DNA of 64,000 bases from Gammaproteobacteria bacterium (GTDB lineage: Bacteria > Pseudomonadota > Gammaproteobacteria > JAJFKO01). The notes under the pieces were generated by a model. The model made no database searches and was not told the DNA's origin. It worked only from the letters and a program-made list of their open reading frames with translations. Within the stretch, counting starts at the first letter, position 1; every line of letters begins with the position of its first letter. The position numbers were made by a program, and so were the translations under genes. Location of the stretch: the NCBI GenBank assembly GCA_021773175.1, contig JAJFKO010000059.1:845-64844 (forward strand). Direction: 5' to 3'. Of the stretch, positions 55,008-64,000 are shown one piece after another.

Positions 55008-56285
55008 CTATATCATCAATGTTTTGATGAGCTCGACATTAGAAACTAGTGCTTGAGGTTTATCTTCACGTAAATACTTAATTGCAACTTGTTCATTCTT
55101 CACTTCTTCATCGCCAAGAATAAATGCCATTCTTGCACCGCTCTTATCAGCTTTCTTAAATTGCGATTTAAAACTACCGCCACCACAGTGAACAGTCAGA
55201 GCAAAATCAGGTGATGTGGTACGAATCTGTTCTTGTAGTTTCATAGCAGCGAGTTCAGCTTCTTGGCCAACAACAATCATATACGCATCCGGAGTATTTC
55301 GAGGCACATGCAGTTCTTGTTGCTCCAGCAATAATAAAATACGCTCCATACCCATCGCAAAACCTACCGCAGGTGATGCCTTACCTGACAACATCTCAAC
55401 TAAGCCATCATAGCGTCCTCCAGCACAAACAGTATCTTGTGAACCAAGTTGTGCGGTACGCCACTCAAAAACCGTATGAGAGTAATAATCTAAACCACGT
55501 ACTAAATGTGGATTAATTTCATAATTAATCCCAGCGACATCCAACAATGCTTGTAAATGCTGAAAATGCTCTAATGTTTCTGCTCCTAAATGCTCAAGTA
55601 AACTCGGCGCTTGCGCTATCATTGTCTGCATCTTAGGGTTTTTACTATCTAAGACGCGCAATGGGTTAGTGGTTAGACGCTTTAAGCTATCTTCATCAAG
55701 CTGCTCGCGATGCGCCTCAAGATACTCGACTAAAATACCACGGTAATTTTGCCGCTCATCTAAGGTCCCTAAACTATTTAGATGCAAGGTCAGCTGCTCC
55801 ACTAATCCTAAACGGCGCCAAAAGTGCATTGTCATTAGAATTAATTCTGCATCGATATCAGGTCCCGGTAATCCAAATGCTTCAACCCCAAGTTGATAGA
55901 ATTGTCGATAACGCCCTTTTTGTGGTCGTTCATGACGAAACATTTGTCCCATGTACCAAAGTTTTTGCACTAAGGGCTGAGATTTGTGATGTAATAATTC
56001 ATGTTCTGCCGCAGCACGAACACAACAGGCGGTGCCTTCAGGGCGCAAAGTTAAACTATTTTTTTCATTATCCAAAAAGGTATACATTTCCTTACCAACG
56101 ATATCCGTCACTTCACCAATGGAACGTTTAAATAGTTCTGTTTTTTCAACAATTGGAAAACGTATTTCAGAATAACCGAAGTTATCTAACACAGCTCGTA
56201 ACTGCGTTTCAAGATAATGCCACATTGGCATTGCGTCAGGTAAAATATCATTCATGCCGCGAATGGCTTGAATTTTCATTGTCAC
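55008..56285 (-). CDS. hisS: histidyl-tRNA synthetase
   Basis: MTMKIQAIRGMNDILP N-terminus. Class II aaRS motifs. Confidence 0.9.
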   Translation of the reverse strand: MTMKIQAIRGMNDILPDAMPMWHYLETQLRAVLDNFGYSEIRFPIVEKTELFKRSIGEVTDIVGKEMYTFLDNEKNSLTLRPEGTACCVRAAAEHELLHHKSQPLVQKLWYMGQMFRHERPQKGRYRQFYQLGVEAFGLPGPDIDAELILMTMHFWRRLGLVEQLTLHLNSLGTLDERQNYRGILVEYLEAHREQLDEDSLKRLTTNPLRVLDSKNPKMQTMIAQAPSLLEHLGAETLEHFQHLQALLDVAGINYEINPHLVRGLDYYSHTVFEWRTAQLGSQDTVCAGGRYDGLVEMLSGKASPAVGFAMGMERILLLLEQQELHVPRNTPDAYMIVVGQEAELAAMKLQEQIRTTSPDFALTVHCGGGSFKSQFKKADKSGARMAFILGDEEVKNEQVAIKYLREDKPQALVSNVELIKTLMI

Positions 56286-56292
56286 ATCTCTC

Positions 56293-63200: not shown

Positions 63201-64000
63201 TCATTCGACCAGTTTATGGCACCCTGAATTTTATCTAAACTCAGATAACTATATTGATTGATTTGTTGTATACGTGACTGCAAGCCAAATAAACTCGATA
63301 AAACTGTCTCATTGGGCTCAATGTCAACACGTAATGGTACGGTGTTAATAAATAACCCCACCATGTCTTTAATACCAACAACCTCACTCGACCGACCTGA
63401 TACCGTTAACCCAAAAGCAACTTGACCGCTACCCGTGTAACAAGACAAAACTAATCCCCAACAAAATTGCAAGACAGTATTCATTGTTAAGTGATGGCGT
63501 TTTATGAATGCATCACAATTTTCTAATAGTTGAGAAGAAAATATGTATTCTTGCCTCTGTTGTTCATGTATTTCTTCATGCACATCAACATGCATATCCA
63601 TAAACGGTAAGCAGGTTGGTTCTTCTAGCTCAGCAAATTGTTCTCTCCAAAAAGCCTCGGCAGCCAACATATCTTGCTGATATAGCCACGCAATATAGCG
63701 ACCATAATCAGCGATATCAGGTAATTGTAATACCCTATCCTCTGCATAATGTTGGTAGTACATCTGTAAATCATTCAACAGAAGAGGCAAGCTCCAACCA
63801 TCTATTAAAATATGATGATGACTCCAAACACACGTATAACTATCTGCTAGACGAATTAAGTGCAGTCGCATCACACACGGCTCAGCAAGACTAAAACCTT
63901 GCTCTCTATCTGCGGCATAAAACGCGGTTAGTTTAGCATCAGCTTGTGCCCGAGACATCGATGTCCAATCTTCTTCTTGCCATGGCAATGCAACCGCGTC
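60296..64000 (-). CDS. second NRPS, 3' portion (N-terminus lies beyond the window end): …C(DCL-like)-A-T-TE with intact active sites
   Basis: The reading frame continues past 63988 to the window edge (…DAVALPWQEED…). C HHHILIDGWS (aa 57-65 of the in-window part). A core YTSGSTGQPKG, A10 NGKIDKK. T FFACGGNSLLVI. TE GWSLGG. Approx nt: C 62954-64000, A 61334-62866, T 61064-61276, TE 60299-61021. Confidence 0.95.
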   Translation of the reverse strand, partial: DAVALPWQEEDWTSMSRAQADAKLTAFYAADREQGFSLAEPCVMRLHLIRLADSYTCVWSHHHILIDGWSLPLLLNDLQMYYQHYAEDRVLQLPDIADYGRYIAWLYQQDMLAAEAFWREQFAELEEPTCLPFMDMHVDVHEEIHEQQRQEYIFSSQLLENCDAFIKRHHLTMNTVLQFCWGLVLSCYTGSGQVAFGLTVSGRSSEVVGIKDMVGLFINTVPLRVDIEPNETVLSSLFGLQSRIQQINQYSYLSLDKIQGAINWSNELPLFFCISVFENYPTNTLISTKVKLSSTEKTHYPLNFIWERKESLSLLIHYDVARFSDEQVSQLIRHIEHTLSWLLAHETATLNNFAITTAIEQQQLLYNRNKATCDYPRDKTIPQLFTEQANKTPDAIAITYIDKQITYAELDKQSNQMAYYLHDLYQNKVGEPIVADTLIALCMERSIDLIIIVLGILKSGAAYVPLDPSYPEIRLNYMLDDVAADVVITKKTIYQKVRLLRETDRQVIVFDENHIQYSEEAIADISSAEALAYVVYTSGSTGQPKGVMVTQRNVVRLVKNTNFAKIHPDDVVANISNIAFDAAIYEIWGALLNGAQISIISQDVLLDTIKFANQLKQQAITIILMTSGLFVECADINPKMFSGLRYLLTGGEIANLEAMRRVLTVNKQKDVHLINCYGPAENTTISTIYDLQTLDTHATNIPIGQPVANSSCYILGQQLQLVPVGVIGELYVGGDGVVRGYLNREELTQERFIENPFLTEEERKTGRNLRLYKTGDLVRWLADGNIEYIGRADLQVKIRGFRVELGEIEGLLQQYERISQAVVLLSKEKSTPQLIGYITLKSEISCERFDNAKLKTWLREFLPGYMIPSVIIRLDQLPLTANGKIDKKALLKVDHHVSYKTPDFSRLNSPIEYKLYRIWCHLLDQEKINFDEEFFACGGNSLLVIRLAYMIKDILGVTVSAAWLFKNNTIEEQVKAISNKDVSFKYEPLMLLNQGAAAKPLILVHPGHAGAEVYMQLTSCLHKNTSVYGVEPTNLYDEGPIIKSIELLAEKYIKELKQVQSKGPYFLGGWSLGGVIAYEMAQKLVSNGDSVECLFLIDSFIHNTNQEIEQKLNTRALQSLVIDKDYLKNFPKPYQNRVKEVSNIEFNAAHLYKAKPYNGKVILFKANKIKKVTGEKLPAFYKKYWENLYKDKSNGWLSYVSDLEIHNILSDHFGMLKSNSVKIIAELINSKLEK

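Follow-up and report, generated by a model that had tools for sequence, protein, structure and literature searches.

The question of whether two neighbouring nonribosomal peptide synthetase (NRPS) genes serve one assembly line or two is raised by a 64,000-nucleotide stretch of DNA from a Gammaproteobacteria bacterium (NCBI GenBank assembly GCA_021773175.1, contig JAJFKO010000059.1, positions 845 to 64,844 of the forward strand), the whole of which is referred to here as the window. The 3′ part of one such gene, named NRPS2 in this study, lies at the right edge of the window, while the other, termed the big NRPS, encodes a synthetase with degenerate terminal carrier and thioesterase domains. 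The original prediction had left undecided whether the two proteins cooperate or are diverging duplicates. The analysis described here favours a different reading, to which a probability of roughly 0.6 is assigned: NRPS2 represents a catalytically competent termination module of a second assembly line, separate from the big NRPS, and its locus probably works independently of the latter.

Domain content and active sites of NRPS2

The gene at the window edge had been read as a second NRPS, a partial protein of condensation (C), adenylation (A), carrier (T) and thioesterase (TE) domains that ends at position 60296 and extends off the window, and this was confirmed by the open frame, by Pfam domains and by the motifs HHHILIDGWS, CGGNS and GWSLGG. 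The following features were assigned (window coordinates):

60296-64000, minus strand: NRPS2, 3′ part of the gene (partial C, A, T, TE), open to the window edge, with the stop codon 60298-60296 (on 60296-60298)
62906-64000, minus strand: NRPS2 condensation domain, partial, with HHHILIDGWS, DCL-type clade
61349-62848, minus strand: NRPS2 adenylation domain, code DAYLLGCTI(K), nearest relative A3 of the big NRPS at 50-51%
61070-61258, minus strand: NRPS2 carrier domain, Ser941 intact (codon 61178-61180)
60299-61003, minus strand: NRPS2 thioesterase domain, triad S1071 (codon 60788-60790), D1098 and H1212 intact

Translation of this part of the minus strand yields 1234 codons without a stop, in a frame that runs past the window edge; in DNA with a GC content of 36%, the length of this stop-free run argues that the gene is live. 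The Pfam Condensation profile matches residues 5-365 of the partial protein at profile positions 80-456 of 456 (E 1.4e-67), with approximately 80 N-terminal profile positions falling beyond the window, and the HHxxxDG condensation motif is present at residues 61-70. AMP-binding covers residues 385-742 (E 3e-77) and AMP-binding_C residues 807-884, with the A-domain core motifs A3 (YTSGSTGxPKG), A7 (YKTGD), A8 (GRxDxQVKIRG) and the A10 Lys at residues 536, 772, 790 and 882, respectively, and with motif A5 in the variant form NCYGPAEN. PP-binding was detected at residues 915-977 (E 3.6e-10), S941 being part of the carrier motif CGGNS, and the Thioesterase match starts at residue 1000 (E 3.5e-24) and includes the nucleophile motif GWSLGG.

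To place these residues, a sample of 66 homologous T-TE didomains was aligned and used for both column conservation and neighbour-joining. The column of S941 holds Ser in 64 of the 66 homologs, and the columns of the carrier Ser and the TE triad are conserved to 94-98%. Furthermore, of the 40 columns conserved at 80% or above, NRPS2 carries the consensus residue in 39. NRPS2 possesses every residue needed for adenylation, tethering, condensation and TE-mediated release.

Proposed function of NRPS2

If NRPS2 terminates a line of its own, its A domain would load a hydrophobic, Val/Ile-like amino acid onto the T domain of the same protein, its DCL-clade C domain would couple the loaded residue to a peptidyl or aminoacyl donor, probably D-configured, from at least one module beyond the window, and its TE would release the product. 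To judge by the specificity code, a branched-chain hydrophobic amino acid is the likely substrate. The DCL assignment of the C domain, together with the missing start of the gene, points to a donor from at least one further module beyond the window, and this donor may be an E-containing module in the same open reading frame (ORF) or a separate upstream protein. The presence of the TE triad and the convergence of the gene end on the neighbouring cysZ gene suggest that NRPS2 closes a transcription unit of its own. It is separated from the start of the big NRPS by approximately 10.5 kb, with three other transcription directions in between. Additionally, module 4 of the big NRPS (A4-T4), its last functional one, is devoid of an E domain which, in combination with the DCL-type C domain of NRPS2, disfavours a direct hand-off from T4 to that domain. 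With regard to the continuation of NRPS2 past position 64000, an exact look-up of rlmN and two metagenome scans gave no match, an exact look-up of cysZ yielded just a 1.7-kb Logan contig, and a scan of genome contigs for an NRPS2 extension returned a single, unrelated Saccharothrix NRPS (31%). The proteins of the window were located on one NCBI contig of 74,687 bp, which continues by no more than 10.7 kb.

The big NRPS and its inactivated terminus

The neighbouring synthetase and its terminal didomain, in which the asterisks mark the degenerate domains, were delimited as follows:

34514-49810, minus strand: big NRPS, 5098 aa, A1-T1-E1-C2-A2-T2-C3-A3-T3-C4-A4-T4-C5-T*-TE*
34517-35449, minus strand: T*-TE*, residues 4788-5098 of the big NRPS

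The protein opens directly with an A domain (core motif A3 of A1 at residue 172), indicating an initiation module within the big NRPS itself. The degenerate nature of T*-TE*, which formed part of the original prediction, is borne out by the didomain alignment: T* displays Arg4817 where 64 of the 66 homologs have Ser, TE* displays Gly4947 where 62 of the 66 have Ser, and among these homologs the loss of both Ser residues occurs in the big NRPS alone. TE* still possesses Asp4974 and His5079, and T*-TE* retains 31 of the 40 conserved didomain columns. Judged by this pattern of residues, T*-TE* looks like a retained pseudo-module more than the outcome of random decay. The preceding C5 domain is intact (HHLITDGWS), an A domain is absent between C5 and T*, and the C-terminus of the protein is formed by TE*, no COM-like or docking tail being present.

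A1 (48300-49800) and A4 (37200-38700) were observed to share the specificity code DLTKIGHIG, which is presumably Asp-like, while being 43% identical overall. The A2 code, DIWQFIFIG, matches none of the codes familiar to us, and the nearest A domain sampled (50%) carries a Ser-type code.

Kinship between the two synthetases

The T-TE region of NRPS2 had been proposed as the template from which T*-TE* was derived, and this proposal was not upheld. NRPS2 T and T* are 30% identical, the TE domains 31-35% and the complete didomains 30.7%. When T*-TE* was used as the query of a HMMER scan that was exhaustive over 1.84 billion representative proteins, 30,165 matches were obtained with a top score of 193 bits; against the same query NRPS2 scores 150.7 bits, i.e. 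approximately 29th place. In the neighbour-joining analysis of the 66 didomains (implemented in numpy, 300 bootstrap replicates), the two didomains emerged as sisters in a single replicate of the 300.

The suggested resemblance of the NRPS2 C domain to C2 held in so far as C2 is the closest of the C domains of the big NRPS (31-32% identity, versus 22-28% for E1 and C3-C5); however, a higher identity (38%) is reached by database domains from the same clade. Among its nearest 40 homologs, 35 are located at a protein N-terminus and four after an E domain, and C2, which follows E1, exhibits the same pattern. The corresponding 40 homologs are positioned directly after a T domain in 39 cases for C3, 39 for C5 and 37 for C4. 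The likeness to C2 would therefore appear to be one of subtype (the DCL clade) rather than of special kinship.

A weak signal of common history was obtained from the A domains. The A domain of NRPS2 is 50-51% identical to A3 and 37-43% to A1, A2 and A4; it and A3 are reciprocal best matches, the best database domains reaching 44-47% among the matches listed. The searches with NRPS2 protein listed targets of up to approximately 2160 aa (for the 1234-aa query) or 880 aa (for the 505-aa query), by which long synthetases are incompletely sampled. The codes, read against a GrsA segment, are DAYLLGCTI for NRPS2 and DVFVMGLTL for A3, and both fall in a Val/Ile-type, branched-chain hydrophobic group. 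The two A domains may thus be, by a narrow margin, each other's nearest known relatives through an old kinship. Taken over all domains, the two synthetases appear to be old mosaic relatives with ordinary NRPS divergence (31-51% per domain) rather than recent duplicates.

Genes between the synthetases and the site of insertion

Of the genes that separate the two synthetases, those from ndk to hisS belong to a housekeeping block, which resumes beyond the big NRPS:

59424-60188, plus strand: cysZ (sulfate transporter; NF003433, 303 bits), convergent with NRPS2, whose stop codon lies 107 bp away
58855-59283, minus strand: ndk (Pfam/NCBIfam)
57706-58830, minus strand: rlmN (Pfam/NCBIfam)
56807-57637, minus strand: pilW (TIGR02521, 161.8 bits versus a cut-off of 154)
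56293-56874, minus strand: rodZ (HTH_25)
55008-56285, minus strand: hisS (Pfam/NCBIfam)
55008-59283, minus strand: ndk to hisS, forming the first half of the conserved block
33654-34349, minus strand: yfgM (TPR_21), directly downstream of the big NRPS
32500-33657, minus strand: bamB
31091-32500, minus strand: der
31091-34349, minus strand: second half of the conserved block, yfgM-bamB-der

The six genes cysZ, ndk, rlmN, pilW, rodZ and hisS, which the original prediction had placed between the synthetases, were verified by Pfam and NCBIfam, although three membrane-protein genes (50464-54996) had gone unlisted. The picture of two NRPS loci flanking a housekeeping block obscures the actual arrangement, as yfgM-bamB-der continue the block on the far side of the big NRPS, which is situated inside it.

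Gene order was compared in four relatives (L003, L005, L007 and L008) that were found via RlmN homologs, these being Legionella birminghamensis and three contigs from metagenomes or metagenome-assembled genomes, and additionally in E. coli K-12. The order ndk-rlmN-(pilW)-(rodZ)-hisS-yfgM-bamB is present in all four relatives, with yfgM directly after hisS. In two of them der directly follows bamB, while the other two carry extra genes between bamB and der. E. coli K-12 displays the order ndk-rlmN-rodZ-ispG-hisS-yfgM-bamB-der. Since hisS and yfgM adjoin in the relatives and in E. coli while their halves of the block are approximately 20.6 kb apart in the window (34350-55007), the intervening segment, comprising the big NRPS and the three membrane-protein genes, is an insertion of approximately 20.6 kb at the hisS/yfgM junction of a block that is conserved across the Gammaproteobacteria. 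The exact resumption of synteny past the insert also speaks against a chimeric assembly. Each relative examined has a different region upstream of ndk, which places NRPS2 and cysZ at a separate, variable junction. Two independent acquisitions represent the simplest history for the two NRPS loci. In addition, a Logan assembly contig (1.7 kb, run SRR15505518) is 100% identical to positions 58898-60609, thereby independently confirming the ndk-cysZ-NRPS2 junction.

In one of the metagenome relatives (L007, JGI 3300020737) a gene for a 1340-aa protein with AMP-binding, PP-binding and Hexapep domains was observed just upstream of ndk (3496-7518), which suggests that the variable junction has attracted genes for adenylating enzymes more than once.

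Neither NRPS locus displays the hallmarks of a mobile island, the features considered being an integrase, a tRNA target, flanking direct repeats and a deviant codon composition. No flanking direct repeats were found, and the lone tRNA gene of the window lies at 27425-27501. The GC content at third codon positions (GC3) of the inserted genes (0.25-0.29; 0.26-0.28 at the two NRPS loci) falls inside the range of the housekeeping genes (0.25-0.37), the lower total GC of both NRPS genes being due to codon positions 1 and 2, i.e. to amino-acid content. A recent transfer detectable by composition was consequently rejected for both genes. The absence of hallmarks and the ordinary GC3 suggest that the insertion is old or that the donor was compositionally similar.

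Separate lines, one line or duplicates

Several observations weigh against a separate line. The N-terminal part of NRPS2 is situated outside the window, and its own initiation module is thus not in the sequence read. In the big NRPS neither T* nor TE*, which follow an intact C5, is functional, leaving this synthetase with no obvious release route in cis and C5 with no acceptor in cis, which together provide room for a partner in trans. Additionally, the marginal closeness of the NRPS2 A domain to A3 implies some shared history, and of the accessory genes sought in the window (MbtH, phosphopantetheinyl transferase, type II TE and regulators) there are none by which self-sufficient clusters could be assigned. 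The partner in trans could be the NRPS2 locus itself: a tetrapeptide made by the big NRPS would reside on T4, C5 would condense it in trans onto the carrier that comes first in the NRPS2 locus, and NRPS2 would elongate it and release it with the sole working TE, while T*-TE* would persist as a structural or docking remnant. We consider this quite unlikely. It is favoured by the preservation of C5 next to a T* without its carrier Ser and a TE* without its nucleophile Ser, by the location of the only intact TE of the window in NRPS2, by the position of both genes on the same strand within 10.5 kb and by their equal GC3. Furthermore, T*-TE* has lost exactly the two nucleophiles while keeping Asp and His of TE* and 31 of 40 conserved columns, which is compatible with a retained non-catalytic role. 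However, the big NRPS ends in TE* without a COM or docking element; its module 4 has no E domain to suit the DCL-clade C domain of NRPS2, so that the hand-off would need an unseen upstream module; and essential housekeeping operons as well as genes of the opposite strand lie between the two loci, in a layout that is consistent with two separate insertion events. The intact C5 could itself release the product and does not need a partner, terminal C domains being known to release products without a TE. The more specific arrangement in which T*-TE* is a dead but fold-conserved docking platform, C5 transfers in trans and the TE of NRPS2 serves as sole terminator for both proteins is regarded as improbable.

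That the two synthetases are instead diverging duplicates within this genome or lineage, with the T-TE of NRPS2 as the parent of T*-TE*, is unlikely. The A domains speak for it, as A3 and the NRPS2 A domain each have the other as best match, at a level above both the database domains (44-47%) and the A domains of the big NRPS among themselves (43% at most), with a 300-nt stretch that is 72% identical at the DNA level, and both TE domains belong to the same broad TE subfamily. The margin of the A domains is small, however, both fall in the same Val/Ile-type specificity clade, and the database comparison covers length-limited targets and is not exhaustive. With T*-TE* as the query, some 29 unrelated proteins outscore the T-TE of NRPS2, its presumed parent; the two didomains group together in 1 of 300 bootstraps at 30.7% identity, and the NRPS2 C domain (31% identical to C2, 25-28% to C3, C4 and C5) has closer counterparts in foreign C domains. 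A further alternative, by which NRPS2 would be the remains of a decaying gene or an artefact of assembly, is very remote: the gene is cut by the window edge, the source contig (74,687 bp) derives from an uncultured-type lineage and domains have decayed in the neighbouring big NRPS, but NRPS2 itself maintains 1234 stop-free codons in AT-rich DNA, 39 of 40 conserved T-TE columns, all catalytic residues and a GC3 equal to that of neighbouring genes, and its junction with cysZ and ndk is reproduced at 100% by the independent Logan contig. In favour of a separate line are the loading A domain with which the big NRPS starts, the TE with which NRPS2 ends, the convergence of NRPS2 on cysZ, the separate insertion of the two loci, the lack of an E domain in module 4 and the lack of a docking tail on the big NRPS.

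Membrane-protein genes and other features of the window

Three genes were inserted together with the big NRPS:

50464-51795, 52070-53443 and 53623-54996, plus strand: three paralogs in tandem, each a multi-pass membrane protein (443-457 aa), located between the big NRPS and hisS

The other two copies are 65% and 39% identical to the third, and one paralog displays a weak, sub-threshold match to Polysacc_synt, resembling MOP flippases. No NCBIfam or other curated family matched the three paralogs, and relatives of the trio were not found when JGI metagenomes were scanned by pattern. They constitute a possible candidate exporter set. An inverted repeat of 18 nt (94% complementary, 9-nt spacer; ATCTACCCATTGGAATTC / GAATTCCAATGGGTATAT) was observed at 50067-50111, within the 653 bp that separate the big NRPS from the divergently transcribed first membrane-protein gene; it may be an operator or a terminator. 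A shared operator for both NRPS loci was rejected, this palindrome being single-copy in the window. Scans for promoter and terminator consensus sequences across 49500-60500 yielded the same counts as shuffled sequence.

Elsewhere in the window, the single tRNA gene is tRNA-Arg(CCT), ORFs of at least 150 aa are absent from 17490-19589, and a protein with HTH_38/HTH_23 domains, like a transposase N-terminus, is encoded at 20349-21158 adjoining comEC. Three GT87-family glycosyltransferase paralogs on the minus strand (538-1908, 3071-4498 and 4426-5817; region 538-5817) bracket mltG/yceG directly downstream of plsX-fabD-fabG-fabF. Their GC content (0.34-0.35) is below that of the fab genes (0.40-0.42), and with them the window has a second set of triplicated membrane-protein paralogs within a conserved housekeeping order.

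Lineage and significance

The highest identity of RlmN to any entry among 5.8 billion protein clusters is 66%, its best named matches being Legionella species and uncultured Gammaproteobacteria, and the host appears to be a deep, Legionellales-like lineage. The best overall relative of NRPS2 is 39% identical among the matches listed, and neither synthetase has an overall relative closer than approximately 40%. A look at the literature on NRPS in Legionellales found nothing specific.

NRPS2 is an ordinary member of a well-known class, the NRPS termination modules, and the occurrence of two nearby NRPS loci is likewise ordinary; structurally, the one point of note is the splitting of the hisS-yfgM-bamB-der block by the big cluster. 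If the separate-line reading is correct, the window contains two NRPS systems and not one. Genome-mining tools would probably merge or arbitrarily split the two loci. Synteny sets clean borders for the big cluster (34350-55007) and identifies NRPS2 as a different insertion. The biological interest lies with the neighbour of NRPS2, a synthetase of 5098 aa whose terminal C domain is an orphan and whose T-TE is dead. Were NRPS2 to partner the big NRPS in trans, this would constitute an unusual line split across essential genes, which is unlikely on present evidence.

Comparison with known systems

The solved structures nearest to NRPS2 are termination or elongation modules, namely SrfA-C (PDB 2VSQ), LgrA and AB3403 (PDB 4ZXH). 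SrfA-C, subunit 3 of surfactin synthetase, has the same C-A-T-TE architecture as NRPS2 and aligns with query residues 8-1108 at 586 bits, while AB3403, also C-A-T-TE, is the best solved match of the T-TE region (97 bits). NRPS2, SrfA-C and AB3403 share the core motifs HHxxxDG, the A-domain core, GGxS and GxSxG with Asp and His. In contrast to NRPS2, which is known from its 3′ part and is approximately 30% identical to them, SrfA-C and AB3403 are complete single-module proteins of approximately 1300 aa; the clustering of the NRPS2 C domain with the DCL type is a further difference.

The best colinear relative of NRPS2 is P0249, encoded on a JGI metagenome contig (Ga0265424_1011003, L009), with 37% identity over C-A-T-TE. 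P0249 is also the second-best match of T*-TE* (186 bits) and closes an ordinary NRPS line of several genes, in which the gene upstream of it aligns colinearly with modules 1-3 of the big NRPS (37% over 2642 aa). By analogy, this pair may illustrate how an unsplit line of such a kind looks, and unlike the situation in the window its two NRPS genes are adjacent, without housekeeping genes between them. L009 was rejected as an orthologous, ancestor-like unsplit cluster, as none of the A-domain specificity codes match. At 7852-8026 of this contig the upstream NRPS ORF was seen to end inside an A domain before motif A8, and P0249 to begin in the tail of a C domain; this junction could stem from a repeat that collapsed in the metagenome assembly, or else mark a genuine deletion or a pseudogene.

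Some NRPS pathways are known to be distributed over several loci, for example those of erythrochelin, rhodochelin and pyoverdine (pvdL versus pvdIJD), in which separate NRPS loci can contribute to one product, and these provide a precedent for cooperation. What the separate loci supply in these cases is mostly precursors, tailoring functions or whole synthetase subunits with matched interfaces, whereas for the pair in the window no interface, shared regulator or missing function is demonstrable and NRPS2 has its own TE. The logic of cooperation in trans derives from SyrE, the syringomycin synthetase, whose terminal C-T-TE module is devoid of an A domain and receives its acceptor amino acid in trans; the big NRPS likewise ends in C-T-TE without an A domain. 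In SyrE, however, the T and TE domains are active, while T* carries Arg and TE* carries Gly at the respective positions, and the replacement of the carrier Ser by Arg renders loading of T* in trans impossible.

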